IMG/VR virus record: IMGVR_UViG_3300042402_007287 | Reading direction: 5' to 3' (one strand) | From: a virus | Lineage: Duplodnaviria > Heunggongvirae > Uroviricota > Caudoviricetes | Length of the DNA stretch: 39,004 nucleotides | Shown: positions 15,539 through 39,004 of the stretch, piece after piece | How positions within the stretch are numbered: position 1 is the stretch's first letter | Layout of the letters: every line of letters begins with the position of its first letter | The notes under the pieces: generated by a model | What the model was told of the DNA's origin: nothing | The model's input: the letters and a program-made list of their open reading frames with translations, nothing else | Database searches by the model: none | Translations under genes and position numbers: made by a program

Positions 15539-17644
15539 TTATGAACAACTTCCTATGTTTTGTATTATACCTGAGCCGTTGGTTATGTTCAAAGTACCTT
15601 CCCTTGCACAAACAGTTGTAGCCCCAAAGAATGTTTGAGTTGTGTAATTTCCATTACAATCTTCCCACTCGATACTCAATCCATATGGTGTTGAAGGCGT
15701 ACAAGTATAAGCTAAACAGGCCAAACTAGTCAAAACGCCAACAACTCTGTGAGTGAGTGTTATAGGTTCCTGAATATATTCAACATTCGCACAAACTCCA
15801 CCCTTTAACGTAACATTCTGCAATGAAATACCAATATCTTGTACCCCTGTAGACACACAATTGTCCTGAGTAGTAGGATTGAACACATCAATGAATGATA
15901 AAGAATTACCACTGAACGTATCGTTTGCAGATATAGTAACATTTTTACTTTGAGAAATGGAAGTTTGTTCCATAGTCAAAGTCGAAGGAGAACACACATT
16001 AGGTAATGTTTGAACTGAAGTTGAATTCACAGCCAAAACAATCGGCACTTGGTTCTTTTCTATGTTGTTAGAACTTGTAATTGTCATAGTCGTGTTAGGA
16101 CTAGCATTAAAAGGTCCTTGTTTTTGTTGTACCGAATTGACCAAATAAGTAAATTCGATAGAAGGTCCCGCAGGTAGAGGTGGCACCACTTCTACATGCC
16201 AGTCTATCCTTCTAGTGTTTTGATTCAGATTTGTCACTCCGTCGACAACAAGTGATAATGTATAAGTTGTAAAGGTAGAATTATATGTTATTGTCACAGA
16301 TTGGGTAAGTATAGTTCCCAAAGAGTCTTTGACTATTAGTCCATATGTAGTTGGACAAAGATTCAAGAATATATTACTTGATTGGTAGTTTTGCGAATCG
16401 ATTGAATATGAATATGGGGGAACACCTCCTTGAGTGTTTACAAAAATTGAGCCAGTACAAGTACCTGTATTACAACTTGAAGGTACTACTTGTAAAGTGT
16501 ATGTAAGAGGAGTCACTGTTGGACAATTACCAACTGTTGAGATAATTGTTCCATAAGTTGTTGGTGTACCTAAAATCACCCAACCACTCGAAGGTATCAA
16601 GCTTGGATTTGTGTTTACTGGTATACCTCCGTAACTCCAATTAGTTATTTCCCATCTATTGTTCGTAATTGACCAAGTGATAGTCAGGTTCTGAGAACTA
16701 TTATACCATGTTGGTTTACCATTAGCATTACCCGATGGAACGAAAGTAAGCTGAAGACCCGCTTGTTGACCTGATGAACCGTAGCTTCCAAGAGGTGTGA
16801 ATAACAGACACAAACTTGTTAAACTCAAACTTGGCGTTGGTGTCATTGTAAGAGTAGGTGTCGGAGTAGCAGTTGAAGTGGGCCCAATCAACGAACATGT
16901 TGTTGTTGCTGAAAAGTCTCCATAGTAATCTATTACAAGAACCGTATAGTTTCCCACAGGTGCATTTGAAATAGTCTGACTTCTTTCACCGGTATTCCAA
17001 TAAAAATTATAAGGAGGGGTACCACCAGTGACATTTACATATAAAATACCATCAAAAGAAGTTGAAGTAGTTGGATTTTGAACTGTTATACACTCAATTT
17101 CCATAGGAAAAATAGTAATAGGTTCACACTCGTTATAGTAAACAACTGCAGGAGTTTGACTTGGTGTTGGTGTGAGTGTTGGTGTTGCACTTTGTGTTAT
17201 TGATGGCGTTAGAGTTGGGGTTGAATTAGGTGTTGGAGTGGGAGTTTGGGAGGTTGTAGGAGTTTGGGTAGGAGTTGCACAAATTTCTGAAGTAGGAACA
17301 TTCAGAATTTTAATTCCGTTGTATGGTAGACCGTAGTTTAATGAAACTATCTGTCCTGGAGTATTACCTCTTACGAAATTTCCACAGCAGTCTGTATAAT
17401 AATAACCTACATCGGTTATACCTTGACCACAGACCACAGGTGTAGGTGTGGGTGTTGTATCCACACAATCTGTGATTTCTAAAATTATTGTTCCTCTTGA
17501 AGTAGCTAAAGTTCCATCAATAATACAATCTGTATAAACTGCAGTACCACCTACTATAGGTCCACTTGCATCTGTACCACCACAATGGGTGGCGTACCAA
17601 TTACCATCATTTTCACTATAAATAAGATACTTAGAACACGACAT
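15539..17644 (-). CDS. Putative virion surface protein with Pro/Thr linkers, Cys-rich modules and two SprB-like repeats
   Basis: GILYVNVTGGTPPYNFYWNTG...GNYTVLVID and GSIFVNTQGGVPPYSYSID...YGLIVKDSLG; TPTPT linkers. Confidence 0.7.
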   Translation of the reverse strand: MSCSKYLIYSENDGNWYATHCGGTDASGPIVGGTAVYTDCIIDGTLATSRGTIILEITDCVDTTPTPTPVVCGQGITDVGYYYTDCCGNFVRGNTPGQIVSLNYGLPYNGIKILNVPTSEICATPTQTPTTSQTPTPTPNSTPTLTPSITQSATPTLTPTPSQTPAVVYYNECEPITIFPMEIECITVQNPTTSTSFDGILYVNVTGGTPPYNFYWNTGERSQTISNAPVGNYTVLVIDYYGDFSATTTCSLIGPTSTATPTPTLTMTPTPSLSLTSLCLLFTPLGSYGSSGQQAGLQLTFVPSGNANGKPTWYNSSQNLTITWSITNNRWEITNWSYGGIPVNTNPSLIPSSGWVILGTPTTYGTIISTVGNCPTVTPLTYTLQVVPSSCNTGTCTGSIFVNTQGGVPPYSYSIDSQNYQSSNIFLNLCPTTYGLIVKDSLGTILTQSVTITYNSTFTTYTLSLVVDGVTNLNQNTRRIDWHVEVVPPLPAGPSIEFTYLVNSVQQKQGPFNASPNTTMTITSSNNIEKNQVPIVLAVNSTSVQTLPNVCSPSTLTMEQTSISQSKNVTISANDTFSGNSLSFIDVFNPTTQDNCVSTGVQDIGISLQNVTLKGGVCANVEYIQEPITLTHRVVGVLTSLACLAYTCTPSTPYGLSIEWEDCNGNYTTQTFFGATTVCAREGTLNITNGSGIIQNIGSCS

Positions 17645-17701
17645 TTAAACTAATGTATATCCTATAATTATAAGGATTAGAATTATTTTATAAATCTAAA
17701 A

Positions 17702-18358
17702 TCAACATAAACCATAATCCAAGATAATTCCTGAAGAATCAATTTGGACTGAATAGTTGTTTCCATTGAACTCCATAAGTAACCAATTACTTCCACCATT
17801 GAACGGTGAATAAAGAACAGAATTATTTTGTACTGTATAAACTTTAGCACCTACAACAGGTACTAAGTTAGCTTCGGCAATATAAGTATAATAATTTTGA
17901 ATTGTTACATGGTCGTTACAACATTCACCTGATGAAGGCCACGTTCTATCTGTACAACCCTGACCCACAGCATGTGAGGCGATGTTTGGTGTCACAGAAA
18001 TAGTAGGTGTTTGGGTGGGAGTAGATGTTAAAGTTGGAGTATTACTCGGTGATTGTGTTGGTGAAACCGTGGGTGTTTGTGTTTGAGTTAGAGTTTGAGT
18101 TGGGCTTATGGTTGGTGTTGGAGTAAAACTCGGTGTAGGTGTGGGAGTAATCGGAAATGGTAAACCTAACTCACAACCCTGAGTATCAACAATTTTTATT
18201 ATGAAATCAGAGTCACAATAAGGCACTGGAACATCAAAAACAAATGGAAAAGTCGCAACTGTTGAGACGTACACACATGAGGCACTCATTGCGTCACAAT
18301 AATAAATGTCTACGGGGGTGTTAGCAGTTAAAGATTTTATGGTTATTTGTTCACTCAT
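17702..18358 (-). CDS. Pro/Thr-linker protein with N- and C-terminal Cys-containing beta domains
   Basis: Start reassigned to MSEQ at 18358 (ATGA overlap with the upstream gene); TPTPT linker of about 60 aa. Confidence 0.7.
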
Positions 18359-18567
18359 TCTGCAGTATTGATTATTTGGCAACCTTGAGCATCGACTAAT
18401 TTTAACATATAAACAGTAAGTTCGTCGTAAGGTTTTGGTATTTCAAAAGTGAAAGGTATTGTTGATGTTTCTGTTATATAGAAACAATTTGTACCGAGTT
18501 CATCACATATGTAGACATCATATGGAGAGGTACCTGTAACCGCATCTATTGAAATAAGTTTTGACAT
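18355..18567 (-). CDS. Small beta-domain protein, paralogue of the N-terminus of 17702-18358
   Basis: Shared pattern P.D(I/V)Y.CD....C.Y.......PF.F..P.PY.......K.VD.QGC. Confidence 0.7.
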
Positions 18568-18568: not shown

Positions 18569-21500
18569 TTATGATTGTGGATAAGTTATTTCGAAATATA
18601 TTATGTCACCCGCACTCAAATCTTTAGGACAAGGTACTGATATACAATTTATATCAGACAATACTGATGTTAAAATCTCACCATTTGGAATCGATAAATT
18701 GTTTGGTCTAAATTCTACTTTAGTACCAATAAATACGTTGTTTATGTAAGTGTTCACGTTGAATACTAAGTAAGGTGTACTCGCTGAAATTATTACACCT
18801 AAATCTATAAAATCATACTGATAAGAAGTCCCGCCTGATATTGGTATGTTTACAAGTTTCGAAACTACTCCACCTCCAGCAATCACCTCTGAGTCAGGGA
18901 ACAATTCGAAATTGAAGTTAGGGTCACCTGTGGTAAACTTAGTTCCATAGTTGGGACTATTCAAGTTTGTTGTATTACCGCTTGGTATAATTAAATCTAT
19001 TGATTCCTCCACTGACCATTGGAACGTTACAGGAACTGTCTGTGATAAACATGTTGTACAATCATTGTATTGTACTTGTCCGAATCCTGCGAAATAGTTA
19101 CCTGTCCAAATTATTTGTGTAGTACCAGGATTTGAATATGGTGTTGTCACAATACCCAAATATTCCCAACAATAATTTCCTTGTCTGAAAGTTTTATTCA
19201 GTGTAATTGGGAACTGAAGTGGTGACGTTTGGAAAACAATTGTGGCACTGTCTATTTGGTCACATTGTTTGAAAACATAATAAATAGTTGGTGTTGCAGA
19301 TGGTGTTGGTGGTGGTGTACAAATGTTACCACAGAATCCCCTTTGACTCGCAATAAATGGCGGTGGAACCAATTCGGTGCAAACCAAGGTACCCTCAACT
19401 GCACAAACCGCATTTTTAGCTTGGTTAGCCAATAATGTTGTTTCCAACGTACCATCACAACTGAAATACTCAAATGAATATTGATTATAATTAGGTGAAC
19501 CATCGTCAATCAAAACCAAATAGTTTATACATGCCGCACAACTTGGTGTAGGTGTATTAGATGGTGTAATAGATGGGGTATTAGTAGGTGTTTTGGTCAT
19601 GGTCGGTGTTTGAGTGGGAGTGGGTTCAGGTGTTGCTCCAATTGATTGAGTTGGACTTGGTGTAATTTGTGGTGTTCTCGTCGGAGTTTGAGTAGGTGTT
19701 TGAGTGGATGTCTGAGTTTGAGTAGGTGTTTGAGTGGCAGTAGGTGTTTTAGTCGGAGTCGGAGTAATTGTTGCTGTTTGTGTTGGTAAACAGAATGAAC
19801 AATTACCAAACACATTTTGAATATCAGTTACTATTGTGTTAGGAGATAATGTCTCTGTATCACCCACGTAGGTTACACACATAGGATTACCGTTCAGAGT
19901 GGCATAAATCACAGTGCCTGGTACCACAACGTTATTTCCGACCACCAAATCACTCGCGGTATAATATCTTTCTCCTGTTGAACAATTTTCTAATATTTTC
20001 ACATTCACACAGTTGAATGGTGAATTCACTATGTTGAAACTTACCAACCCACCAGCTGGGATGGGTGAAGCAACAGGAGTTTTAGTAGGAGTAGGTGATG
20101 GTGTGGCCGTAGGTGTAGATTGTAAAACACTGAACAAGACACTTTTTCCTGAACAACCAACCGTTGCTGAAGGTGTAGGTGTAAGTCCAAATCCTGTAAA
20201 TGTAAAATCAACATCATCACAATCTATACTAGGCGATGGGGTTGGTACAGGTTCCCAATCACAATCAAAATACGCAACAAAATCAATTGTACATGCCGAT
20301 GGAGATGGAGTTGGGGTTGGACACGGACCTGAGTTGAAAAAATTCGCAGATATATCAGGACAACTAGAGTACAAAGGTGTTGCACCTTGTAATATACAGG
20401 CTCCTCCCAAAGTTTCAGAAAGACACCAATAATTTTCTGTTGAGGATGTAAAATAATAAATTACGGCGGTTGTTAAACCATCACCAGAGTATGTTGGTCT
20501 GTTGTTAAAAAATGAACCTTCACTGTAGTTTCCAGTGTATGCACTGAGTGATGGTAAATTAGTTTGAAGACAAAAATCAGTGCTAGTACAACCCGATGGA
20601 GTTGGAGAAGGTGTGGGGGTAATAGTTGGTGTTGCTGATGTAATTGTGGGGGTTGGTGTAGTTTTACAATAGAAACAACTTTTAAAATCAGGCTCCCCAA
20701 AATATGGTCCACCAGGTCCTGAAAATTCAATAAACTCATAACATTCCCCTTGGTAGATGTAGGCCGCCCCATCGAAAGCAACATCTTCATCAACAGTGGC
20801 ATATAATACAGCCCCGTCTGAACATCTGGCAAAAAGAGCTGCCCTCCAATTAGTTCTCGGACAAACATCTGCTTCACATCCCGCAATATTAGTAAATGTA
20901 ACACCATTCGAATTATAGATTGGTCCTGTCTCAAATCCAGAAACCACTGTAGCACATCCCGAAAACTCCAAACTTCCTGAGATGTAATATGTTTCATCCA
21001 AGGGTAATGCCATCATTGATGGACCACCGAATCTAAAGATAAATTCTAAATTATCACAATCTTGGAATTGGACAATATTCAAAGGGGTACTTGTGGGTGT
21101 CGGTGTTTGAGTTGGAGTAGTATTTGGGGTTTGGGTCTGAGTTGGAGTAGGACTAGAAGGTGGTGTTGAGGTGGGTGTTTCAGTAGCTGTGGGCGATGCT
21201 CCTATAGTTGAAGTGGTTGTTGGTGTTTGTGTATTAGTTGGAGTTTCCGTTGGCGTTTCTGTTGGGGTGGTAGTTGGTGTTTGTGTATTAGTTGGAGTTT
21301 CCGTTGGCGTTTCTGTTGGGGTGGTAGTTGGTGTCGGAGTAACACAACAATCAACAAATGTGTCCGTCCCGTAAGAACTTACAGGAAAGAGTGTTATGTT
21401 GTTTTTGTAATAGTATGTTGCTTGAACATAATTTGCACAGAATGAATTGTTAAATGTTCCCGCATACGCAAAACTTGCAGTATTGAGAACATTATAACAA

Positions 21501-23488
21501 TCGTAGTAATCGATAAACACGGTATTATTGAGACTCGAAGGTGTATTACCTGTAGCATCGTCCAAGTCGGCCTGAGCTATTGTAACATCGAAATATGTGC
21601 AATTACAGGGAGTTGAAGGGGTTGGAGTTTGTGTTGGCGTCTCTGTAGTGGTCGGAGTTGCCGATGTATCAACAGTAGGTGTATTTGTCGGGGTTTCTGT
21701 GGTGGTTGGGGTAGGTGTTGGAGTCTCTGTAGTAGTTGGTGTTGCTGAGGTATCAACGGTAGGTGTTTGTGATGGTGTTTCAGTGGGAGTAGTAGTTGGA
21801 GTAGGTGTAATACAACAATCAACAAATGTGTCCGTATCAAAGGACGATACAGGAAAGAGCGCTGTATTGTTTTTATAATAATATGTTGCCTGAACATAAT
21901 TCGCGCAAAAAGAATTATTAAAAGTACCCGCATCGACATAACTCAACGTGTTCAATACGTTGTAACAATCATAATAATCAACGAAAATTGTGTTGTTCAA
22001 AGATGATGGTGTATTACCTGTCGCATCATCTAAATCCGCCTGAGCAATCGTAACATCAAAGAATGTACAATTACAAGGAGTTGATGGGGTAGGTGTTGGG
22101 GTTGGTGTTTCTGTATTAGTTGGAGTTGGAGACAAATCAAATGTAGGTGTGGTCGTTGGTGTCTCAGTTGTAGTAGGTGTTTCAGTTGGAGTTTCTGTAG
22201 GCGTTTCAGTTGGCGTGTCTGTTGGAGCTGGAATTGGAGGGTCTGGGTCTGTTGGGGTAGGTGTTGGTGTTTCTGTATTTGTGGGTGTATTAGTGGGAGT
22301 TTCTGTATTTGTGGGTGTATTAGTTGGAGTTTCTGTGTTTGTGGGTGTATTTGTAGGTGTTTCAGTTGGAGTTTCTGTAGGCGTTTCAGTTGGCGTTTCA
22401 GTTGCAGTTGGTGTTCCTCCCACTGTAGCTGTTGTTGAGGGTGTCGGACTATTTGATGCGGTGTTTGTTGGAGTCTGCGTTGGTGTTTCAGTTGGTGTCT
22501 CGGTGGTTGTAGGTGTTGTTGAAGGTGTGTTAGTAGGACTTTCGGTCAAAGTGGTAGTGGTTGTTGGAGTTTGTGTTGGTGTTTCTGATGGCGTTTGAGT
22601 TGGTGTCTCGGTGGGTGTTTCCGTGGGTTTCTCAGTAATTGTGGGTGTTGTTGAAGGTGTGTTAGTAGGACTTTCGGTCAAAGTGGTAGTGGTTGTTGGA
22701 GTTTGTGTTGGTGTTTCAGTAGGACTTTCTGTAATAGTAGGCGTGTTGGTAGGAGTTTCTGATGGAGTTTGAGTTGGTGTCTCTGTCGGAGTCGCCGATG
22801 GTTCAGGTTCAAATCCACAAATATAGTACGGATTACCCTCGAAAGTAACTTGGGTAGGTGTGACCCCAGTTACTGTGATGTTAGCACTTGACGTGGGACT
22901 TCCCTGAATGAAAGTATTTGAGGTTTCTGCCGATTGAGAACCTGACCCTATAGTCAAAGTCCAATCAGAAGTATTTGTGTCGGTGCTGATTGTTCCACTG
23001 ACTGTGACACTTTCGTCAACAGGCCAAGGATTCAAAGCAACGTTTACACCAAAATAATTATAAATTCCTGATTGTGGAATGGGAGAAATTTCAGTAGCCA
23101 CAATGTTTACACAAGAAATAGGTGTCGGTGATGGTGTGGGTGAAAGTGTGGACGTAGGAGGTATGATGTTTTTAGCAACAATCTCAACATCGTTTGATGT
23201 TGTAACATTTATAGTTGTAAAATCGTATATACCATCTCCCGTCCAACTGAGTTGTTGGTTTAAACTATTATCAATATATAATTCCAAATAAGGAAAACTG
23301 TCGGTTACACCAGTCCATCCTACTTCTACAATACCTGAAAAGTTTTCAGTATCTCCAGAAACATAATTTCCTGATTCACTAGGACCAATTGGAAAACTAC
23401 CAACAAGATTGCTATACAATGAGGGTGTAATACCGGTTATTGAGCCAGTAGTCAAAGAAAGGTCATAAAGTGCGGAAAATACACCCAT
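18569..23488 (-). CDS. Large (1639 aa) mucin-like virion protein: Cys-rich modules separated by long Thr/Pro linkers
   Basis: Hundreds of residues of [12 protein letters not shown], several Cys modules and an internal domain duplication. Confidence 0.75.
21335..22087 (-). repeat. Internal duplication of a 6-Cys domain of about 95 aa (copies at about 21805-22087 and 21335-21619)
   Basis: PSTPCNCT(F/Y)[24 protein letters not shown]...FVDCC twice, 468 nt apart; 12 amino-acid differences by manual alignment. Confidence 0.9.
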
Positions 23489-29538: not shown

Positions 29539-31397
29539 ATTTCCAAGATTGTTTTTAGAATAATTCTATTTTTATTTTTCTCGATTATATCAATATAATA
29601 TTTTCCGTGGTGCAAATTTATGTCCGAAATAAAAAAAGTCCAATAATTAAAAATTTTTTGATTTTGTAAATTTAGAATTTCTTTTTTTTCACTATTTCTG
29701 ACAACGAAGTTGACAGTATCTTCAATTTTTTTACCTGTTAAAAAAGAGTTTCTTTGAAAGAACAATGTGTTGTTTTTAAAGTTTACCAAAAAATCATCCT
29801 CGCACAAAACAGTTTTACCGTAGTTTTCTCTTATTTTTTTGTAGAATTCAAAGTCTTTGAATCCGTGAAATATATAAATCTCATTTTCATTTTTTGGTAA
29901 TTTAACATGTTCGGAAATTAAACTTATATTGTAGCTGTAATTTTTAATTTTTTGCATATCTAAAAATGGTGATTCTTCCATATCAATTAATGGAAGTGAT
30001 TTTTTTAATTCATATTTAGATAATAATATATTAGCCGAGTCTTCGTCGTGTAATCTGAATATCCCTGGTTTTGTATTTTTGTATTTGTTGTATATTTCCA
30101 TCTGTTCTTCAAAGAACCATCTTGAATTTTTATCAAAAAGGATTACGTTGCATTTTCTTCTAGGAAATATTCTTATTGGTATATTAGTGACCTCTGACAA
30201 TATATCTAAAGTGCTTACCCATTCACGTGTAGGTAATATATCGTTAGCATAAAGTCTATCATGGACGTGGGAATTCATCAAAGGATAATTTTCGATTTCA
30301 TCGAAAAAGTTTCCTAAGTCATCGGAAACATTGGTTAAATAAACATCAGTGTCAATGTAAACAAATTTAGTATCACTTAGATAGTTTATCGCATCCGAAA
30401 GAATAATTGGTTTTGATGATAACACAGTTATATCTCTTCCATTTACGTCTAAATCACCTTTTGGTAAATCTAATCTCCTAACTATGAACTGTTCATCTAA
30501 ATTAGTAATAAGTTCAGAGGTATAGTTTATTGTATACAAAAGACATTTTCTGTTTGAATATTTTCGAATGGAATCGATAAAACCCTCGAGTAATTTTTCA
30601 TAATTTTCAGTGAAGTAGGTCACCCACATGAAGTCATCAGAAAATTTTTTGGAGTTTGTGCAAGTTATCGTATTACCAATTCGACTCAGTTTTGTGTTAT
30701 TCTTATTATAAAAATGATGTAGTAATTTTTCTTCCGAGTTTACATAAACCTTTCCTCCAAACCATTTACAATTTGGAATCAACTTTCCTTCTATAACATC
30801 AAAATTTGAACAATCATAAAGAATTTTTACTTTGGAATTTTTTTGATGAAGTTCGTTTAATTCATTTTCATCGAAAGCAATTACATCGTAGTTTATTAAA
30901 TTGTTTACGAATTCAGCAAACTTTATTTTGTAAATAGTTCTGTTTTGCTCGGTGTTTTTAATTATGGTAAGGGGTCCAGAAATTCTATCATGATAGTTTC
31001 GTTCTCCAAAAGAAATAACATCGAAAGATTCCAAATACGGGTCAACAAATTTTCTCAAGTCACCAAAAAGAGTATCAATGTCGTAATGCCCAAAAAAATC
31101 ATAACCTCTCAGATGTTCAGAAAACAAATCACCCAAAGATGATTTTAAAATACAAACATTCCTGAGATTATTAATTTTGTAGTCTATCCCAATTTTCGAC
31201 TTGATGAGTTTTTTTAAGGATTCTATCCCTACTTTAATAACTTTGTAATTTTTACTATTCAAATCAATATCTTGGTCAGTTACAAAAAGAAAATCTATAT
31301 TTAGATTTTTAGTTGTTTCATAGTGATACCAAAAATAATCAGGTATTTTTCCAATCCAAAGTTGAATAAGGATTATGTTGGGGTTTTTTATCTGCAT
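29535..31397 (-). CDS. Two-domain putative glycosyltransferase (DUF6625-like plus a GT-A-like domain)
   Basis: WIGKIPDYF...YDFFGHYDIDTLFGDL (DUF6625-like); second domain SKP...FVYIDTD...HDED. Confidence 0.7.
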   Translation of the reverse strand: MQIKNPNIILIQLWIGKIPDYFWYHYETTKNLNIDFLFVTDQDIDLNSKNYKVIKVGIESLKKLIKSKIGIDYKINNLRNVCILKSSLGDLFSEHLRGYDFFGHYDIDTLFGDLRKFVDPYLESFDVISFGERNYHDRISGPLTIIKNTEQNRTIYKIKFAEFVNNLINYDVIAFDENELNELHQKNSKVKILYDCSNFDVIEGKLIPNCKWFGGKVYVNSEEKLLHHFYNKNNTKLSRIGNTITCTNSKKFSDDFMWVTYFTENYEKLLEGFIDSIRKYSNRKCLLYTINYTSELITNLDEQFIVRRLDLPKGDLDVNGRDITVLSSKPIILSDAINYLSDTKFVYIDTDVYLTNVSDDLGNFFDEIENYPLMNSHVHDRLYANDILPTREWVSTLDILSEVTNIPIRIFPRRKCNVILFDKNSRWFFEEQMEIYNKYKNTKPGIFRLHDEDSANILLSKYELKKSLPLIDMEESPFLDMQKIKNYSYNISLISEHVKLPKNENEIYIFHGFKDFEFYKKIRENYGKTVLCEDDFLVNFKNNTLFFQRNSFLTGKKIEDTVNFVVRNSEKKEILNLQNQKIFNYWTFFISDINLHHGKYYIDIIEKNKNRIILKTILEI

Positions 31398-31449: not shown

Positions 31450-33732
31450 ATGATTAAAATATATGCACACGGTTCCTACGTTGGAAATACAGGTTATAAT
31501 CAACACACGAGGGATTTTTTTAGACATTTATCAAAACATGCCAAAATAAAGTTCCGAAATTTTACCGTTGGAAACTCTTGGAAAGGTTACAACTTAGAAC
31601 CTCACAATGAAGAACCATATTTCAACCAAACAGATAGAGAATTATTATATGAACAAGTACTTTGGGATGATGCCGCTAGAGGTAAAAGAAGTAATTATAA
31701 AATCTATCCTGATGAATCCAAAGAGTTCGAACAGGACTTGAACATAGTTTTGTGTGAAACTAATCATAATCTTTTTTATGATGAATACGAGGGTCCAAAG
31801 ATTGCATATAATGTTTGGGAGTCTACACTACAACCACAGGGTTATTTTAATAAATTATTAGAGTTTGACGAATTGTGGGTTCCTTCTGAATGGCAGAAAG
31901 ATTGTACTGTGAAACAAGGATATCCCTCAGATAAAATAAAAGTTGTCCCTGAAGGTGTAGACATCAAAACTTTTTATCCCGATAAGAATGCAAAACACCC
32001 TTTGACCGAAGGAAAATTTACATTCTTCTTAGCCGGTCGTTGGGACTACAGGAAATCGATAAAGGAAATTATCGAAACATTTATAAAAACGTTTGATAAA
32101 ACTGTAAATGTTGAATTGATAATATCAGTAGATAATCCTTTTTCCAACGATGGATTGAGCTCCACTGAAGAAAGATTGAAACATTATGAACTTGAAGATG
32201 AAAGAATAAAAATTTTACATTTTCCACCAAGAGAAGAGTACATCAAACTTCTAAAATCATGTAGTGTATTTGTTTCATGTGCGAGGTCTGAAGGTTGGAA
32301 CCTTCCTCTAATTGAATCTATGGCTTGTGGTACACCATCAATATATTCGAACTGTTCAGGTCAGTTAGAATTTGCAAAAAACAAAGGTCTTCCTGTAAAA
32401 ATATCACACGAGCTACCTGTAAGTGCAAGTACTTACAACCATTTTAACGACAATGTTGGGAATTACTATGAACCTGATTTTGAGGATTTATCGAGAGTAA
32501 TGAAATACGCCTACGAAAATTACGAATCCATTAAAAAAACTGCGTTGATTGATTCCGAAAAAATTAGAAAAGATTTCAATTGGGAAAATGTTGCTAAGAT
32601 TGGGTTAGATACAATCAAAGATTTTTTGAAAAGACATAAATCATTACCCCCCAAACCAAAGAAAAAAAATGAAATTATTGTTTCATATTTAGATGGTCCG
32701 AGAGTTGAGGTTTTGGGAGACGATAAGGAAAATTATCTTGTTGAATTTATAAATTCGGATACAGGAGAAGTTATACATTCACAAACAATAAGTAATAACA
32801 TGTGGACCGCTTGCGGAAAAAAATATTACATTCCATGGGAAATAAAGATAAATGGAAAATTATTCGATAAGTTAGACTTAGAGGGTAAAGAAGTGATGAT
32901 AACCTTGGAGTCAAGTTCTCTTGGTGACACAATAGCTTGGACACCATATGCCGTAAAATTTGCAGAAAAACATAAATGTAAAGTTATTATGGCAACCTTT
33001 CATAATGAGTTTTTCCAAAATTTAAAGACATACGAAAATATCAAATTTATTAAACCAGGTGTTTCTCATACGTGTCATGCAATATACAGGATTGGCTGGT
33101 TCAAAGAAAATAATAAATGGGAAGTTTTTGACAAATACCCAAATCAAGTAAATTTAATCCCAATACAACAGACATCCTCAGACATTTTGGGATTAGATTT
33201 TCAAGAATTGAACTTAGGTTTAGATTTCAAAAAAGGTGATTCTCCATTAGATAAAGATTATGTTGTATTTGGACCAAACGCAACTTCAGGTTGTAAAGAA
33301 TGGGACTATAATAGTTGGGTAACCTTATCAAAATTGTTGCAAGAAATAGGATATGAAGTTGTTATCATAACAAAAAACCCTTTCATGATTGAAGGTACGA
33401 CAAATATTTGGGGTGAAAGTTTGAATGTGGTTGCAAATTACTTATATCATGCAAAAGCATTCATAGGGTTAGGTTCAGGACTTTCTTGGTTGAATTGGGG
33501 TTTGGGTAAACATACTTACATGATAAATGGTTTTTCTAAACCTGGTCATGAATTCACAAGTAAAATAACACGTATTCAAAACAACGTTTGTATATTTTGT
33601 TGGAATGATGAAGTATTTGTTTTTGATGCTGGAGATTGGGATTGGTGTCCCGTCTATAAGGGAACTAAAAAACAGCACATCTGTCAAAGGTCAATAACAC
33701 CATTACAAGTTTTCCAAAGTTTAGAATTATGA
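31450..33732 (+). CDS. Fusion of a GT4 glycosyltransferase and an Aah/TibC-type (BAHT) O-heptosyltransferase
   Basis: GT4 SEGWNLPLIESMACGTP; then beta-barrel YLDGPRV...DTGEVI...KKYYIPW, SSLGDTIAWTPYAVKF, FIGLGSGLSWL and iron-finger CIFCWND...WCP...IC. Confidence 0.85.
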   Translation: MIKIYAHGSYVGNTGYNQHTRDFFRHLSKHAKIKFRNFTVGNSWKGYNLEPHNEEPYFNQTDRELLYEQVLWDDAARGKRSNYKIYPDESKEFEQDLNIVLCETNHNLFYDEYEGPKIAYNVWESTLQPQGYFNKLLEFDELWVPSEWQKDCTVKQGYPSDKIKVVPEGVDIKTFYPDKNAKHPLTEGKFTFFLAGRWDYRKSIKEIIETFIKTFDKTVNVELIISVDNPFSNDGLSSTEERLKHYELEDERIKILHFPPREEYIKLLKSCSVFVSCARSEGWNLPLIESMACGTPSIYSNCSGQLEFAKNKGLPVKISHELPVSASTYNHFNDNVGNYYEPDFEDLSRVMKYAYENYESIKKTALIDSEKIRKDFNWENVAKIGLDTIKDFLKRHKSLPPKPKKKNEIIVSYLDGPRVEVLGDDKENYLVEFINSDTGEVIHSQTISNNMWTACGKKYYIPWEIKINGKLFDKLDLEGKEVMITLESSSLGDTIAWTPYAVKFAEKHKCKVIMATFHNEFFQNLKTYENIKFIKPGVSHTCHAIYRIGWFKENNKWEVFDKYPNQVNLIPIQQTSSDILGLDFQELNLGLDFKKGDSPLDKDYVVFGPNATSGCKEWDYNSWVTLSKLLQEIGYEVVIITKNPFMIEGTTNIWGESLNVVANYLYHAKAFIGLGSGLSWLNWGLGKHTYMINGFSKPGHEFTSKITRIQNNVCIFCWNDEVFVFDAGDWDWCPVYKGTKKQHICQRSITPLQVFQSLEL

Positions 33733-34619
33733 AAACAATCTTGATTAAACTACTTTCAAACTCATTAGGAGATACAATCGCCATCATGCCATGTGTTGAT
33801 TATTTCATTGAGCGAAGTAGTGATAATGTTTTGTTACAAATAAACAAAAACTTCGAATTTTTATTTAGAAATTCTTTTCCGAAAATAAAATATTTTTCGG
33901 AGGATATGAATTTTGATAAAAAAATTGATTTGGTCTATAACCACACTAAACCATTACAAACAGGATACGCCAATCAACTCGGATTTATAGATTGGTCATA
34001 TATTAGACCAAAAGTTGATTCATTCACATCTGATAGACCAATAAAAAATAAATATGTTTCCATGAGTATACACTCAACATCACAGTTAAAATATTGGAAT
34101 CATAAAGATGGTATCTCTGTTCAACCATTATCACCAAATTGGTCCGAACTTTCAGGTATGATAAGAAAAAAGGGATATACCCCTGTAATAATTGAAAGGG
34201 ATGAAATGTTCGGACTACCTCCATTCAGAAATGGAATGCCAACAAAAGCCCAAAAAGTTTTTGGTATATCCCTTTTGGATACTATGAATTACATTCACCA
34301 CTCAGAGTTTTTTATTGGACTTTCTTCAGGACTTTCATGGTTGGCTCATGCCATGGGAAAAAAGGTTTGTATGATTTCTAATTTCACCGAAGAATCACAT
34401 GAATTTGATTTATCAACAAATGATTACGTTAGAATTACAAATAAATCTGTTTGTCATGGATGTTGGAATCAGGTCGGAAAGGGACTATATTTTGACAATG
34501 AAGACTGGTATTGGTGTCCCAAACATAAAGGTACTGAGAGACAGTTTGAATGTCACACATCAATAACACCACAAATGGTGATGGATAAAATAAATAATTG
34601 GTTAAATTATGAAAAATAA
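33729..34619 (+). CDS. Aah/TibC-type O-heptosyltransferase lacking the N-terminal barrel
   Basis: SNSLGDTIA, HST...K.W, FFIGLSSGLSWLAHAMGKKVCMISNF and iron-finger CHGCWN...FD..DW.WCPKHKGTERQFECHTSITP. Confidence 0.85.
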   Translation: MKTILIKLLSNSLGDTIAIMPCVDYFIERSSDNVLLQINKNFEFLFRNSFPKIKYFSEDMNFDKKIDLVYNHTKPLQTGYANQLGFIDWSYIRPKVDSFTSDRPIKNKYVSMSIHSTSQLKYWNHKDGISVQPLSPNWSELSGMIRKKGYTPVIIERDEMFGLPPFRNGMPTKAQKVFGISLLDTMNYIHHSEFFIGLSSGLSWLAHAMGKKVCMISNFTEESHEFDLSTNDYVRITNKSVCHGCWNQVGKGLYFDNEDWYWCPKHKGTERQFECHTSITPQMVMDKINNWLNYEK

Positions 34620-35241
34620 AACTTACGGTTTAGTTATTAGTTCATACAAATATGGTCACTTAGCATCCCATTGCATAGAATCAGTTCTATGTCAAACAAA
34701 AAAATTTGACAAAATATGGTTTGTAGACGATGGTGTAGGTGATTGTTATTTTCTTGAAAAATTATATCCTACAATACATTTTGTTTTCAGGAAAGAAAAT
34801 TATGGGGTTGTCAAAAATTTCCAAGATATGCTCCAAAAAGTAGATACTGATTTCGTAATGTTTTTAGGTGCGGATAATTGGTTGCGTGCAGATACACTAG
34901 AGCGTTTAACTTATATGAAACCTCACACCGATATTGTAACTTTTGATGTTATAGTTACAGGAACACTAAGACATGAAATAATTACTACTTACCCAAATGA
35001 AATAACTAAAACTATGGGTGATTTTTATTGGTCCAGAAAATTCAAACATCATGGGTCTATGTTATATAACACAAAACTTGCATTAGAAAGTGGTGGTTAT
35101 GCAAATAATTTTACAAGTATAAGGACAGATGAGGACCTGAATCTATGGGAAAAAATGATAAAAAGAGGTGCGACTTTAAGTCATGTGGAAGAGGGTCTCC
35201 TCTATTATCGAAGACATCAAGAAAATTTTTATAAATATTAA
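34609..35241 (+). CDS. GT2-family glycosyltransferase
   Basis: SSYKYG...CIESVL.Q, VDDG, FLGADNW, DEDLNLW, YYRRH. Confidence 0.85.
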   Translation: MKNKTYGLVISSYKYGHLASHCIESVLCQTKKFDKIWFVDDGVGDCYFLEKLYPTIHFVFRKENYGVVKNFQDMLQKVDTDFVMFLGADNWLRADTLERLTYMKPHTDIVTFDVIVTGTLRHEIITTYPNEITKTMGDFYWSRKFKHHGSMLYNTKLALESGGYANNFTSIRTDEDLNLWEKMIKRGATLSHVEEGLLYYRRHQENFYKY

Positions 35242-35978
35242 GGGGTTGCTACTCCTCTTTTAGAAACCACTATCGAAGATTTTTCATTAGCATAGATTAT
35301 TGACTCTTCAATGTCTTTTGTTTTGAAATAAGCCAATATAAAGGCAGTAGTGAATGTATCACCAGCTCCACTGACATCTATCGTTTCTTGTGGTTTGGGG
35401 CTTTTATAAATGGTACCGTCATACTTAGCACCTTTTTCCCCTAAAGTGACTATTATGTTTTTACAATTTTGTAAATCTAAATTGTTATTAGCCTCTTTTT
35501 CATTCAACTTTACAAACGTAAATGAATCGACTATTTCTCTATTTAGTTTTCTTTTGGAGTCGAGAATGGAAAGTTTGGAGAATTTCCCCAAATATTTTAA
35601 CCATTCATCATCTAAAAAACCTTTATTATAATCAGATACAATAACAATATCGAAATTTTTTATACTAGACAATCTTTCCTGTGAATGGGTCATAGGTGAA
35701 ATATATGACTCACCGTCATCCAATCTCAAAAACATGTGATTAGTTTTTCTATCAACAAATCTAGTTTTGAATACTCTTTCACTTTGATACCAATGCTCAA
35801 TACTACAATCTTGCTCAAGAGCCTTGAGGTTCTCCACAACATTACCTGACATTCCAGGATTTTGTATGGTTTGTACAGGATTCATTACAGGAACTGGAGC
35901 TTCAGGACAAAGTCTTTTACACTCTCCGTATATGAAATTATCTTCACAAAGTTCTCCAACAACAAGTATTTTTATCAT
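35238..35978 (-). CDS. rfaE1: RfaE/HldE domain I: heptose-7-phosphate kinase (PfkB family)
   Basis: ILVVGE..ED..IYG...RLCPEAPVPV, GMSGNV, SDYNKG, LDSK, VKLNE.E, DVSGAGDTF. Confidence 0.88.
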   Translation of the reverse strand: MIKILVVGELCEDNFIYGECKRLCPEAPVPVMNPVQTIQNPGMSGNVVENLKALEQDCSIEHWYQSERVFKTRFVDRKTNHMFLRLDDGESYISPMTHSQERLSSIKNFDIVIVSDYNKGFLDDEWLKYLGKFSKLSILDSKRKLNREIVDSFTFVKLNEKEANNNLDLQNCKNIIVTLGEKGAKYDGTIYKSPKPQETIDVSGAGDTFTTAFILAYFKTKDIEESIIYANEKSSIVVSKRGVATP

Positions 35979-36364
35979 TTTTTATAATAATTTAAAATTT
36001 TTGTTGAACTATAGTTTGGTATTTTTTCAAAGAAAACAAGTTTTTTTGCGTGTTCACTTCCGTACACTATTTGTTCTTTATAATCATCACCGATGACCAT
36101 AATGTCAGGTGAGAAGTTTTTTACGTTTTCGATGAGTTCTTCTCTTGAATCGAATAACACCACTTCATCAACAAATTTTATGGATTCTAGCATTTTTTTT
36201 CTATCATCTTGAGTGTTGAAGGGTCTGTCTTCCCCTTTCAATTCTTTAACTCTTTTATCTGTGTCTATTCCTACTCTTAAATAACCAAATTGAGATGCAA
36301 ATTCCAAAAGTTTTATATGACCTATGTGTAATATGTCAAATGTACCATTTACCCAAACTTTCAT
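35975..36364 (-). CDS. rfaE2: RfaE/HldE domain II: heptose-1-phosphate nucleotidyltransferase (cytidyltransferase-like)
   Basis: VNGTFDILHIGH, GIDTD..VKELKG..RP, VDEVVLFD, GDDY, YSST. Confidence 0.85.
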   Translation of the reverse strand: MKVWVNGTFDILHIGHIKLLEFASQFGYLRVGIDTDKRVKELKGEDRPFNTQDDRKKMLESIKFVDEVVLFDSREELIENVKNFSPDIMVIGDDYKEQIVYGSEHAKKLVFFEKIPNYSSTKILNYYKK

Positions 36365-36666
36365 AATTCTTCAATTCTTTTTGATTTGTCACAAATTATC
36401 AAATCATAATGGGGTTTGTGGTTCATTTTTAATTCGTGAAACTTACAACCCCACTCATTCAATTGTTTGAATGTCAGTTCACTCCAATCACGTTTTGTTT
36501 TCTGCCCTCTTGCAGTATAATAAACAATCGTGTGACCTTCATCATACAATTTATTTATTTTATCAATATGATGAGGGAATGGTTCCGCTTCGTTATAATC
36601 TTTGACTAAACTACAAATAGTCCCATCTATATCTACGTATATTATTTTTGGCTGTCCCCTTTCCAT
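36361..36666 (-). CDS. Small HAD phosphatase (EcbF/BcbF capsule-biosynthesis type)
   Basis: YVDIDGTIC, YYTARG, KPHYDLIICDK motifs. Confidence 0.8.
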   Translation of the reverse strand: MERGQPKIIYVDIDGTICSLVKDYNEAEPFPHHIDKINKLYDEGHTIVYYTARGQKTKRDWSELTFKQLNEWGCKFHELKMNHKPHYDLIICDKSKRIEEL

Positions 36667-37028
36667 ACTCTATATGAATCTGAATCAAAATGTTGAGTTG
36701 ATACTTCAAATACTTCGCCATCAGTGATAGCTTCTAATTGATGTGGTTGACCAGGTAATTGTCTAACAGTATCACCAGGTTTTAGTATTGTTTCCATAGT
36801 ATCTGCGGTTTCCACATCAATCCATCTATAAATAAACTCACCTGAATTTACATACCAAGTTTCGTCTTTAATCATATGATAATGCATAGAGAACTTTGCA
36901 CCCTTTTTGAATACTAAAACTTTACCACAATAAAGTGGGTCATTTATTATAATAATTTCATGCCCCCAACCCTTTGGTATTTTGCATTCGGGACACTCAT
37001 GAACATTTACAACTGAAGGTTTCCTCAT
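36642..37028 (-). CDS. Cupin-fold sugar isomerase/epimerase
   Basis: KGWGHE, SMHYHMIKDETWYV, PGQPHQL, FEVST cupin metal motifs. Confidence 0.82.
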   Translation of the reverse strand: MRKPSVVNVHECPECKIPKGWGHEIIIINDPLYCGKVLVFKKGAKFSMHYHMIKDETWYVNSGEFIYRWIDVETADTMETILKPGDTVRQLPGQPHQLEAITDGEVFEVSTQHFDSDSYRVWKGDSQK

Positions 37029-37087: not shown

Positions 37088-37097
37088 GAATTTATTT

Positions 37098-39004
37098 TTA
37101 AGGTTTCGTTGGAATGTATTCGAGTAGTGGTGGATTTACGTCTTTACGTTCAGCTTGTATGAAGAAGTAAGCGTTTATATTTCCTTTTTCTGAATCAACA
37201 TAAACTTTATTATCTTCAATTTTAACAACAAAGTGAGTGTTTGGTTCTCCGATTGATGTAAACTGAACCGTTATACTATTTGAATCAACTAACTCGGTCC
37301 AATAATCTGGTAATTCAATTACATTTGAAGTTACAACACCTCTGACATATACACCATGTTCAGGACCTTCCAACACACCGTATCTCAACCTCATTCCAGA
37401 TTTTGTTGGGTGAGGAATGTCGAATGATTTAGAAGACGCTGTAAAGTCTCCATACAAAGTGAATGTTGCTTCTGTCTGTAATCCCATTACAGCGTTTGTA
37501 CCATCAAACGTAAAGTTTTGTTCACCATTTATGACACCAGCAGTTCCTGTTGCGGTAAGAATGTAGTTGTTTGTGTTGTTATTGATTGTTGCAGTTCCTG
37601 ATGTACCTGAGCTACCGCTCGTACCAGATGAACCAGACGTTCCTGAGCTACCTGAGGTTCCTGATGAACCAGACGTTCCTGAGCTACCTGAGGTTCCTGA
37701 TGAACCAGACGTTCCTGAGCTACCGCTCGTACCTGATAAACCACTCGAACCAGATGTTCCTGAAGAACCAGATGTACCACTCGAGCCACTTGTTCCTGAT
37801 GAACCTGATGTTCCACTTGCTCCACTAACTCCACTAGTACCCGATGAACCAGAGGTTCCTGAGCTTCCGCTTGTTCCTGAAGAACCTGAGCTACCACTTG
37901 TTCCAGATGAACCAGATGTTCCACTTGAACCTGAGCTACCTGATGTTCCACTTGAACCTGAGCTACCTGATGTTCCACTTGAGCCAGAAGAGCCAGATGT
38001 TCCTGATGAACCTGATGAGCCAGATGTTCCTGATGAACCGCTCGTACCAGATGAACCAGACGTTCCTGAGCTACCTGAGCTTCCGCTTGTTCCTGAAGAA
38101 CCTGAGCTACCACTTGTTCCTGAAGAACCTGAGCTACCACTTGTTCCAGATGAACCAGATGTTCCACTTGAACCTGAGCTACCTGATGTTCCACTTGAGC
38201 CAGAAGAGCCAGATGTTCCTGATGAGCCAGATGTTCCTGAAGAACCTGATGAGCCAGATGTTCCTGATGAACCTGATGAGCCAGATGTTCCTGATGAACC
38301 GCTCGTACCAGATGAACCAGACGTTCCTGAGCTACCTGAGCTTCCGCTTGTTCCTGAAGAACCTGAGCTACCACTTGTTCCTGAAGAACCTGAGCTACCA
38401 CTTGTTCCAGATGAACCAGATGTTCCACTTGAACCTGAGCTACCTGATGTTCCACTTGAGCCAGAAGAGCCAGATGTTCCTGATGAGCCAGATGTTCCTG
38501 AAGAACCTGATGAGCCAGATGTTCCTGATGAACCTGATGAGCCAGATGTTCCTGATGAACCGCTCGTACCAGATGAACCAGACGTTCCTGAGCTACCTGA
38601 GCTTCCGCTTGTTCCTGAAGAACCTGAGCTTCCGCTTGTTCCTGATGAACCGCTCGTACCAGATGAACCAGACGTTCCTGAGCTACCTGAGGTTCCTGAT
38701 GAACCTGATGAGCCAGATGTTCCTGATGAACCTGAGCTACCACTTGTTCCTGAAGAACCTGAGCTACCTGATGTTCCTGATGAACCTGAGCTACCGCTCG
38801 TACCAGATGAACCAGATGTTCCACTTGAACCTGAGCTTCCGCTTGTACCTGAAGAACCAGATGTACCACTTGAGCCACTTGTTCCTGATGAACCTGAGCT
38901 ACCGCTCGTACCAGATGAACCAGATGTTCCACTTGAACCTGAGCTTCCGCTTGTACCTGAAGAACCAGATGTACCACTTGAGCCACTTGTTCCTGATGAA
39001 CCTG
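37098..39004 (-). CDS. Tail-fibre-like protein with a collagen-like (Gly-X-Ser)n region and a conserved C-terminal domain; 5' end outside window
   Basis: The frame of track ORF 37098-37487 stays open to 39002: (GSS/GTS)n, then GTATINNNTNNYILTATGTAGVINGEQNFTFDGTNAV, then M...KSFDIPHP...LRYGVLEGPEHGVYVRG...IELPDYW. At least 634 aa. Confidence 0.88.
   Translation of the reverse strand, partial: GSSGTSGSSGTSGSSGTSGSSGSSGTSGSSGTSGSSGSSGTSGSSGTSGSSGTSGSSGSSGTSGSSGTSGSSGSSGTSGSSGSSGTSGSSGSSGTSGSSGSSGTSGSSGTSGSSGTSGSSGTSGSSGSSGTSGSSGSSGTSGSSGTSGSSGTSGSSGSSGTSGSSGSSGTSGSSGTSGSSGSSGTSGSSGSSGTSGSSGTSGSSGSSGTSGSSGSSGTSGSSGSSGTSGSSGTSGSSGTSGSSGSSGTSGSSGSSGTSGSSGTSGSSGSSGTSGSSGSSGTSGSSGTSGSSGSSGTSGSSGSSGTSGSSGSSGTSGSSGTSGSSGTSGSSGSSGTSGSSGSSGTSGSSGSSGTSGSSGSSGTSGSSGTSGSSGSSGTSGSSGTSGSSGTSGVSGASGTSGSSGTSGSSGTSGSSGTSGSSGLSGTSGSSGTSGSSGTSGSSGTSGSSGTSGSSGTSGSSGTSGSSGTSGTATINNNTNNYILTATGTAGVINGEQNFTFDGTNAVMGLQTEATFTLYGDFTASSKSFDIPHPTKSGMRLRYGVLEGPEHGVYVRGVVTSNVIELPDYWTELVDSNSITVQFTSIGEPNTHFVVKIEDNKVYVDSEKGNINAYFFIQAERKDVNPPLLEYIPTKP
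37599..39002 (-). repeat. About 156 Gly-X-Ser triplets with nested 261-nt and 108-nt direct repeats
   Basis: 1404 nt in register. Identical sequence recurs at 38041, 38302 and 38563 (261-nt period); a 108-nt period is present near the window end. Confidence 0.9.

Follow-up and report, generated by a model that had tools for sequence, protein, structure and literature searches.

The DNA analysed here is a stretch of 39,004 nucleotides from a virus of the Caudoviricetes (IMG/VR record IMGVR_UViG_3300042402_007287); we call this whole stretch the window. Its region 15539-39004 holds an island of 18 tightly packed genes (A to R), which encode two transferases of the TibC/Aah type (K and L), a putative heptose donor operon (N, O, P and Q), predicted tailoring enzymes, Thr/Pro-rich proteins and a collagen-like fibre (R). 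The first-pass annotation of this DNA had proposed that the island is a self-contained phage system for protein O-heptosylation, and all the genes it listed were found where it had placed them.

The window is AT-rich, with a G+C content of about 30-41%, and the genes of its left part, for a sigma factor, SbcC/SbcD-like nucleases and an exonuclease, are of the kind carried by large T4-like phages. Within the island, genes J to D form a run on the minus strand, from 31397 down to 23785, mostly with 4-nt overlaps. K-L-M are an overlapping operon on the plus strand (31450-35241), and Q-P-O-N an overlapping operon on the minus strand (37028 down to 35238) that is convergent with K-L-M. The heptose operon is thus placed between the transferase genes and the fibre gene, with R upstream of Q-P-O-N. 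Since a terminator-like hairpin separates the two, co-transcription of R and the heptose operon is not claimed. The positions of all features are collected in Table 1.

A megablast search of 50,697 phage records gave no match for the island. At least 20 lake-water or freshwater metagenome runs from 2017-2024 contained the exact island (31450-37100, all sampled words), with no RNA run among those listed. We therefore regard its carrier as a persistent lake phage.

Table 1. Genes and other features of the window, with the assignments and family matches obtained for them
Feature	Position	Strand	Description	Match or remark
K	31450..33732	+	GT4 fused to full-length TibC/Aah-type (BAHT) domain that has a putative beta-barrel, a thumb and a four-Cys iron finger	
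L	33729..34619	+	Barrel-less TibC/Aah-type paralogue	Start overlaps the end of K by 4 nt
N	35238..35978	-	HldA-like (RfaE domain I-like) PfkB sugar-phosphate kinase, 246 aa	
O	35975..36364	-	HldC-like (RfaE domain II-like) nucleotidyltransferase	
P	36361..36666	-	101-aa mini-HAD phosphatase	Candidate GmhB stand-in
Q	36642..37028	-	128-aa metallo-cupin	Candidate sedoheptulose-7-phosphate isomerase in place of GmhA
Hairpin	37057-37085	-	Terminator-like: 8-bp GC-containing stem, GAAA loop, T-run	Between the R stop codon and the Q start
R	37098..39004	-	Collagen-like fibre, C-terminal 634 aa; N-terminus beyond the window	Primary candidate acceptor
A	15539..17644	-	701-aa Thr/Pro-rich protein, SprB-type repeats, no signal peptide	Secondary candidate acceptor
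B	17702..18382	-	226-aa protein with central Thr/Pro/Ser/Gln linker	phrog_15511 and phrog_21885 (families without an assigned function)
C	18569..23488	-	1639-aa protein with long Thr/Pro linkers between Cys-containing globular domains	Secondary candidate acceptor
D	23785..25149	-	Fusion of beta-phosphoglucomutase-like HAD and sugar-1-phosphate nucleotidyltransferase	PF13419 E 3e-30; PF00483 E 9e-9
E	25146..25574	-	142-aa protein	phrog_34507; weak GDPD-like leads only
F	25582..26418	-	FkbM-type methyltransferase	PF05050 E 6e-7
G	26415..26963	-	Hexapeptide-repeat acetyltransferase	PF00132 E 3e-11
H	26960..27889	-	309-aa phage-only protein	Atlas neighbours are viral hypothetical proteins; weak WavE/GT25 leads
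I	27886..29538	-	FkbM and Methyltransf_24 domains	PF05050 E 1e-16; PF13578 E 1e-5
J	29535..31397	-	DUF6625, then GT8-like C-terminal half with DxD-type motif	PF20330 E 7e-28
M	34609..35241	+	GT2 glycosyltransferase, last gene of K-L-M	PF00535 E 3e-13
Sigma factor	1210-2007		Sigma-factor-like protein	
SbcC and SbcD	5057-7435 and 8995-9774		SbcC- and SbcD-like nucleases	
Exonuclease	10059-10904		Exonuclease	

TibC-type transferases, candidate donor operon and fibre

The two transferases were compared with TIGR04414 (hepto_Aah_TibC), a model built on heptosyltransferases with a curated equivalog cut-off of 200 bits. K scored 215.4 bits over residues 406-758, above the cut-off, and carries its GT4 domain (PF00534, E 4e-16) N-terminal to this region. 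It aligned from profile position 9, with a weak match to TibC_1st (19 bits, cut-off 27). L reached 188 bits and fell below the cut-off because its match (profile positions 83-372) begins at position 83, without the N-terminal barrel. The solved TibC structures 4RAP and 4RB4 were matched by both proteins with E values of 1e-31 to 1e-37 (K against 4RAP, E 1e-36 over residues 407-754; L against TibC, E 1e-31). By sequence, K and L are true enzymes of the BAHT family, and the earlier assignment of two Aah/TibC-type transferases at 31450-34619 is borne out.

TibC is a cytoplasmic protein O-glycosyltransferase that forms a ring-shaped dodecamer through contacts of its thumb and iron finger (PMC4358343). 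Its Asp110 is the catalytic base, Thr226 and Lys230 contact the beta-phosphate, Trp305 bonds heptose O4, and Arg286, whose replacement by alanine inactivates the enzyme, confers ADP specificity through a contact with adenine N1 (PMC4358343). Pro300 gives selectivity for D,D-heptose (Aah has Ser there), the iron finger consists of Cys339, 342, 358 and 370, and deletion of the N-terminal beta-barrel (residues 1-97) abolishes activity; the enzyme can also modify synthetic peptides, with Ser preferred over Thr (PMC4358343). In our alignments with TibC, the equivalents of Asp110, Thr226, Lys230 and Trp305 are kept in both K and L. So is the four-Cys pattern C-x2-C ... W-C-P ... C, for which iron binding is predicted only. 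The catalytic, donor-contacting and iron-finger residues were invariant in the 18 L-type and 12 K-type relatives aligned.

The barrel-less form is common in metagenomes, where L gave 3,418 matches at E <= 1e-5; relatives with 57-83% identity and a length of about 293 aa fall into more than 100 clusters. Gene tables of three contexts placed an L-type gene directly after a K-type gene or with one methyltransferase gene between them, and 28 of 78 viral loci contained two BAHT domains. A complex of K and L was predicted with a score of 0.66, against 0.00 for the best control, and with thumb base and iron finger forming the interface. As the structure of the TibC dodecamer is already solved, this score may reflect likeness only and is not proof. 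The K-L mark was reached by 58/80 solved complexes and by 2/110 mismatched pairs. The prediction runs agreed in at least 90% of contacts, and the partner pLDDT (predicted local distance difference test) was at least 90.

The TibC-type domain was also found in longer open reading frames (ORFs) of 1213-1234 aa in Microcystis phage Mel-JY01 and in three complete genomes, G020-G022. The long ORF of Mel-JY01 has a confirmed GT4 match, and its methyltransferase part is assigned from an FkbM annotation and a tblastn match to I. These fusions argue that TibC-type, GT4 and methyltransferase activities may act on one product. A scan of the viral data with L as single protein found none, and an alignment-based scan did find loci. 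Only two contigs of metagenome-assembled genomes were returned by a K-type motif scan, which is uninformative on bacterial relatives. Among the neighbouring proteins A, B, C, R and a 748-aa protein, no match to autotransporter, pertactin or AIDA families was seen.

The operon N-O-P-Q at 35238-37028 had been named a heptose-activation operon, and the closest models for N and O are indeed RfaE domains I and II, at scores below their equivalog cut-offs. N matched TIGR02198 with E 3.5e-36 and 125 bits (cut-off 345), followed by the bifunctional HldE model and then ribokinase at 8e-13; its best solved relative is the D-beta-D-heptose 7-phosphate kinase 4E84 (HldA). O matched TIGR02199 with E 5e-28 and 97.7 bits (cut-off 181.5), with TagD-type glycerol-3-phosphate cytidylyltransferase close behind (79.5 bits, E 2e-22), and its relatives in the PDB have the cytidylyltransferase fold. 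In the case of P, a HAD-IIIA match of 27.7 bits, below the cut-off, was accompanied by weak matches to GmhB and EcbF/BcbF and by a match to PDB 9IQW, a "capsule biosynthesis protein" (E 9e-11). Q is a cupin (PF07883) with an invariant metal site of His49, His51, Glu56 and His96. Its predicted fold (pLDDT 70) resembles, among other cupins, cupin sugar isomerases and type-II phosphomannose isomerase domains; the matches of the fold search included the CapF cupin, KdgF, lyxose isomerase, cupin phosphoglucose and phosphomannose isomerases, and oxalate decarboxylase. Beyond these matches, related genomes lend independent support to a heptose product.

A kinase and a nucleotidyltransferase were each found in 59 of 80 viral loci anchored on the cupin. 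A TIGR04414 gene above the cut-off was present in all five large viral records with the cupin (G012, G022, G025, G026 and G027). In the sister contigs L216 and L217 (315 kb and 227 kb), positions 10001-12297 hold a variant operon of cupin, nucleotidyltransferase and kinase followed by a short-chain dehydrogenase/reductase. The latter matches TIGR02197, ADP-glyceromanno-heptose 6-epimerase, with 193 bits and E 7e-57, against E 1e-11 for GalE. This variant operon lacks a HAD phosphatase, and no TibC-type gene lies less than 10 kb from it. No HldD-type ADP-heptose 6-epimerase was seen in the window, so a D,D-heptose would be the expected product there.

R matches the collagen family PF01391 at 226 bits. 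About 156 Gly-X-Ser triplets had been noted in it at first; our count gave 157 uninterrupted Gly-X-Y triplets in the window, with Ser (90) or Thr (64) at X and Ser at Y in 156. The tract contains no Pro and no charged residues, and its triple helix is predicted from the repeat only. At the DNA level it shows 261-nt and perfect 108-nt higher-order repeats. The 130-aa C-terminal domain of R recurs in T4-like cyanophages, immediately downstream of the gp5 baseplate hub gene, and it also ends a Flavobacterium phage "tail fiber-like protein" whose gene is flanked by those for structural proteins. Its structural relatives in BFVD are the C-terminal ends of viral collagen-repeat and tail proteins; a fold search against the PDB gave no significant match for this domain. 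A fibre of record G002, split over two contig ends (L029, 18999-20891, minus strand, and L088), combines a long G-[ST]-S tract with an ordinary G-A-Q/G-P-Q tract, which means that two collagen chemistries can share one polypeptide. Its C-terminal segment resembles, by eye, the S74 intramolecular chaperone of phage fibres. The recurrences of its C-terminal domain and the architecture of the G002 fibre make it very probable that R is a fibre of the virion.

The N-terminal domains of the G001 and G002 fibres (L087, 2970-4073, minus strand, and L088) consist of Gly/Thr/Ser-rich repeats of about 20 residues with the look of beta-helical strand-loop-strand units. They matched no Pfam or PHROG family, and it is conceivable that they are a second acceptor of TibC-type enzymes.

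In Mel-JY01 (L001, PP395634.1), an open frame of 1016 aa at 2-3049 on the plus strand contains 202 Gly-X-Y triplets and runs off the start of the record. Ser or Thr occupies 90% of its X and 69% of its Y positions, and it lies directly upstream of a "structural protein" and of the long TibC-type gene, which is annotated as an FkbM methyltransferase. GenBank gives Pro-rich ORFs on the opposite strand instead (1-651 and 739-2298), and the fibre gene of Mel-JY01 appears to be unannotated. Metagenome gene calls likewise pick the Pro-rich frame of the opposite strand (L002, fibre frame 11701-16716 on the minus strand against the called 12152-16399 on the plus strand; also L005, 14466-18284), and the window has the same shadow frames at 37529-39004. 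Because of such calls, Ser/Thr fibre proteins are largely missing from protein databases.

Co-occurrence of the enzyme with proline-free collagen-like tracts

The flanks of the TibC-type gene were examined in 78 viral loci at 30-67% identity, which were clustered at 95% (54 clusters) and at 70% (30 clusters). A Pro-free collagen ORF with Ser/Thr at both X and Y was present in the flank in 17/54 and 10/30 clusters, respectively, mostly convergent with the enzyme gene and 7 bp to 8.5 kb away from it. Ten viral records were chosen by the enzyme; in nine of them a collagen gene has Ser/Thr at X alone or at both X and Y, and in six the distance is no more than about 9 kb. The complete 317-kb genome G001 has three collagen fibres of the ordinary G-A-Q/G-P-T kind at a distance of 51 kb from the enzyme, and a single G-[TS]-[SDN] fibre 1.7 kb away. 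The sole collagen ORF of G003, G004 and G005 is of the Ser/Thr type and lies 1-2.5 kb from the enzyme. Five more records (G006-G010) showed no long tract in the flank examined; of these, G006 has a tract of 30 triplets at 1.2 kb, and G007 a mixed tract at 46 kb.

The reverse approach took the fibre as its starting point. More than 120 viral stretches matched a DNA pattern that encodes ten G-[ST]-[ST]-like triplets, and 80 loci were examined. The enzyme was found in the short flanks of 5/80 tract loci, and a sixth (L101) has a fused GT4 at its edge. Nine large records were then considered that carry a 10-triplet Ser/Thr tract and had no TibC-type match in the examined flank. Six of these nine, including all three that are at least 90% complete, proved to hold the enzyme at 212-313 bits. 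In a search of 50,697 deposited phage genomes, Mel-JY01 and three huge uncultured phages were the only ones with a TibC-type domain.

As a lineage control, the SbcC-like gene was used as a neutral marker. It retrieved about 80 related viral contigs, six of them of 309-326 kb, and five 100%-complete genomes of 309-326 kb were picked in this way. Three (G020-G022) have the enzyme together with 46-181 pattern matches, and two (G023 and G024) have neither; the reversed-pattern control gave zero. With G001 added, both features are present in four of the six complete sister genomes and absent from the other two, with no discordant case.

Since the terminal domains of the tract-bearing proteins, both N- and C-terminal, are unrelated, what these proteins share is the tract. 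Adjacency, two-way co-occurrence and presence or absence in sister genomes support a linkage that is specific to proline-free G-[ST]-[ST] collagen-like tracts. Linkage of glycosylation genes to Ser/Thr-rich structural genes in related genomes, on which the first-pass annotation had staked its proposal beforehand, is therefore present. In the complete 326-kb genome G022 the TibC-type gene lies at 307 kb, Ser/Thr tracts at 28-31 kb and 98 kb, and the cupin operon at 213 kb; clustering is thus not required for co-occurrence.

Tailoring genes and Thr/Pro-rich neighbours

The earlier assignment of three methyltransferase domains (F and I) and an acetyltransferase (G) agrees with the Pfam matches. 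Its list of glycosyltransferases held for GT2 (M) and GT4 (K) and is not secured for J, where DUF6625 is a family without an assigned function and the C-terminal half provides only a GT8-like lead (Atlas score 0.94). D, which also matches TIGR02009/TIGR01990 and Arch_glmU/rmlA_long, probably provides a second route to a nucleoside-diphosphate sugar (NDP-sugar). The fusion would make a compact two-step route from sugar-6-phosphate to NDP-sugar. No Pfam, NCBIfam or PHROG match was obtained for H, which, as a lead only, is possibly another transferase. The set of tailoring genes varies between relatives and the TibC-type genes persist, as in variable glycan loci. No membrane segment was seen in any island protein, and flippases, polymerases, ligases and lipid-priming transferases are absent from the island, as would suit a soluble pathway that works on protein in the cytoplasm rather than one for lipid-linked polysaccharide.

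The Thr/Pro-rich composition reported for the proteins of 15539-23488 was reproduced: the fractions of Thr and Pro are 0.17 and 0.08 in A, and 0.22 and 0.12 in C, which also has 159 [ST]P/P[ST] dipeptides. A contains the SprB repeat PF13573 and no hydrophobic segment, and matches weakly a PHROG annotated as "virion structural protein"; the repeats and this match make it a possible structural protein. Upstream of C, on the minus strand, two T4-late-promoter-like TATAAATA boxes were found at 23499-23506 (11 nt before the ATG) and 23586-23593. With 7 copies in the window against 4.2 expected, TATAAATA is no more frequent than chance would allow, and only the position of the copy before C is suggestive. 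No such box precedes the glycosylation genes. With the SprB repeats, the weak PHROG match and the box before C, the proteins A, B and C are candidate, unproven virion proteins.

Proposed pathway, rival explanations and known systems

Our reading, to which we give a probability of roughly 0.55, is that the island serves the phage for O-glycosylation of its own fibre protein in the cytoplasm. In the proposed pathway, N (kinase), O (nucleotidyltransferase), P (phosphatase) and Q (isomerisation of sedoheptulose-7-phosphate) would produce a nucleotide-activated D-glycero-D-manno-heptose. The TibC-type domains of K and L, which probably act as a hetero-oligomer, would transfer the heptose to Ser, and perhaps Thr, of the G-[S/T]-S tract of R. 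The GT4 domain of K, the GT2 enzyme M, J, D, the three methyltransferase domains and the acetyltransferase would then extend and cap the glycan, and the glycosylated fibre would enter the virion, where the glycan may affect fibre folding, stability and adsorption. An unfolded Gly-Ser-Ser chain is compatible with the activity of TibC on peptides, by analogy. It is attractive to suppose, from the analogy with BclA and with worm cuticle collagen, which carries glycosylated Thr, that the glycan stabilises the proline-free triple helix. A more ambitious form of this reading seems to us doubtful but worth stating: phages would have co-opted the TibC family to place a heptose-primed, methylated and acetylated glycan on nearly every triplet, with sugars taking over the helix-stabilising role of hydroxyproline and with a donor route that uses a cupin isomerase and is independent of GmhA.

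Several observations weigh against glycosylation of the fibre with heptose as proposed. On the side of the enzymes, the position of Arg286 holds Val in K and Thr in L (an alignment shift is possible), and the donor nucleotide is uncertain because the adenine-contacting Arg of TibC is not conserved. L has no barrel, barrel removal inactivates TibC, and the known acceptor of TibC is Ser in beta-helix repeats, not a collagen-like sequence. On the side of the donor, N, O and P, like Q, score under their curated cut-offs. Profile searches found no SIS-fold GmhA among the island proteins of the window; it is for this reason that we infer a sedoheptulose-7-phosphate isomerase in Q, and its reaction is not assigned by fold because the fold matches span many cupin activities. 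No TibC-type gene was seen within 10 kb in 67/80 cupin loci, and the complete genomes G020 and G021 have the transferase and neither cupin nor kinase. The operon is consequently an accessory supply. The term "self-contained" suits only some phages, including this one: the donor operon is present here, and the term depends on a cupin that would stand in for GmhA and does not extend to the two complete sisters. On the side of the fibre, enzyme and fibre are 14-47 kb apart in some records, G009 and G010 having their Ser/Thr tracts at 14 and 38 kb, and the enzyme-bearing G008 (64% complete) shows no collagen gene. The lineage comparison may represent a single event and cannot separate the two acceptor candidates, because the island, including the Thr/Pro-rich proteins, was gained or lost as a block.

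That second acceptor candidate leads to an explanation we consider rather unlikely, in which the main acceptors are A, B and C, modified on mucin-like linkers, and the collagen-like fibre is a mere neighbour. These proteins, with their long Thr/Pro linkers, are encoded immediately upstream of the island; G020-G022 have relatives of C at 7-8 kb from the enzyme, none was detected in the enzyme-less sisters G023 and G024, and Thr/Pro-rich ORFs are found near the enzyme also in L005, L011, L013/14 and L040-44. In the flanks of the 30 enzyme clusters at 70% identity, however, a Thr/Pro-rich ORF was present in only 3, against 10 with the Ser/Thr collagen ORF, the linkers are mostly Thr whereas TibC prefers Ser, and it is only within one lineage, as members of the same island, that the Thr/Pro-rich proteins vary together with the enzyme. 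Of the Ser/Thr-rich virion acceptors first proposed, the collagen-like tract is therefore upheld by linkage, and the Thr/Pro-rich proteins are rarely linked elsewhere. It is unlikely as well that the TibC-type enzymes glycosylate the fibre with a sugar other than heptose, such as a hexose from the NDP-sugar of D, with the product of N-O-P-Q going elsewhere. The replacement of Arg286 would suit such a donor, as would Gly in K and Ser in L at the position of Pro300, the BAHT-bearing G020 and G021 without operon, and the distance at which the operon often lies from the enzyme. Against this, K passes the heptosyltransferase equivalog, Trp305, Thr226 and Lys230 are kept, and every one of the five large records with the operon also has the enzyme. 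A Gram-negative host could moreover provide ADP-heptose where the operon is missing.

The remaining explanations place the sugar on other targets. The island might remodel host lipopolysaccharide, capsule or surface proteins during infection, for instance to block superinfection, instead of the virion. Phage glycosyltransferases that change the serotype are well known (reviewed in PMC12619734), and the combination of GT2, GT4 and GT8-like enzymes with methyl- and acetyltransferases resembles polysaccharide gene clusters. We regard this as improbable, as the island has none of the membrane or lipid-linked components named above, the TibC family acts on protein in the cytoplasm (PMC4358343), and the strong association with one type of fibre would be left unexplained. 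The same association speaks against the transfer of sugars to phage DNA, for which we see hardly any chance. Large T4-like phages often glycosylate their DNA, and viral transferases that hypermodify DNA are among the works cited in PMC12619734, but TibC-type enzymes act on protein Ser, and no enzyme for hydroxymethyl-pyrimidine or another acceptor base was seen in the window.

If glycosylation of the fibre by this island is true, it would be a second, mechanistically different and apparently widespread case of phage virion glycosylation, and it would bear on how phages adsorb, how stable they are and how they are recognised. The range of the BAHT family would then reach from the adhesins of pathogens to phage fibres, and the finding would explain how proline-free Ser/Thr collagen tracts can function. 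Should the cupin-isomerase and glyco-collagen form of it also be true, a new class of virion fibre, a new class of BAHT substrate and a new entry step into heptose biosynthesis would follow. The case is also a warning that database names such as "autotransporter strand-loop-strand O-heptosyltransferase" misstate the substrate of these phage genes. The idea is directly testable in the cultured Microcystis phage Mel-JY01, which has the enzyme beside such a fibre. Full-text searches found no paper linking BAHT-type enzymes, heptose and phage fibres, and none on Mel-JY01. To our knowledge, glycosylation of phage virion proteins has so far been shown experimentally only for mycobacteriophages. The nearest known precedents are virion glycosylation in mycobacteriophages, fibril glycosylation in giant viruses and BclA; the window adds a heptose operon between transferases and fibre, and a link of operon and transferase at the level of genomes.

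The enzymes themselves are closest to the TibC-TibA and Aah-AIDA-I systems of E. coli. They share the GT-B core, the catalytic Asp, the Thr, Lys and Trp contacts, the beta-hairpin thumb region and the four-Cys finger. Both systems are cytoplasmic, use a donor of the ADP-heptose pathway (predicted for the phage) and are paired with a long repetitive structural protein encoded nearby, whose Ser is the acceptor, in the phage a candidate one. Unlike them, the phage system is phage-borne and has no autotransporter; its candidate acceptor is collagen-like Gly-Ser/Thr-Ser instead of a beta-helix, its enzyme is fused to GT4 and co-encoded with a barrel-less paralogue, Arg286 is lost, and it has a donor operon of its own. 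The ADP-L-glycero-beta-D-manno-heptose pathway (GmhA, HldE or HldA and HldC, GmhB, HldD) likewise uses a PfkB kinase, an enzyme of the cytidylyltransferase fold and a HAD phosphatase, and the sister operons have an HldD-like epimerase. The window differs in having a 128-aa metallo-cupin instead of the SIS-fold GmhA, a mini-HAD of 101 aa and no epimerase.

In the case of the fibre, BclA of the Bacillus anthracis exosporium has a collagen-like region that is densely O-glycosylated (PMC10050317). As proposed for R, this is a trimeric collagen-like surface filament of a dormant particle, with O-linked oligosaccharides on repeats of the Gly-X-Thr type that end in a modified sugar made by a dedicated operon. 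BclA is bacterial, its glycan is initiated by N-acetylgalactosamine through unrelated transferases, and no heptose or TibC-type enzyme is involved. The repeats of BclA also contain Pro. Mycobacteriophages (Freeman et al. 2023, cited in PMC12619734) are similar in that, as described there, phage-encoded glycosyltransferases modify their own structural proteins in the cytoplasm. According to the same description, the sites are the C-termini of capsid and tail-tube proteins and the enzymes belong to other glycosyltransferase families, with no mention of a donor operon, a TibC-type enzyme or a collagen-like acceptor. In Mimivirus, the fibril clusters and L230 show the same clustering of nucleotide-sugar synthesis, several transferases and a methyltransferase, whose products decorate surface fibrils, and collagen-like viral proteins that are glycosylated by a viral enzyme (PMC9614988). 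There, the virus is eukaryotic, the sugars are rhamnose, viosamine or, on hydroxylysine, glucose, and the enzymes are of other families (PMC9614988).

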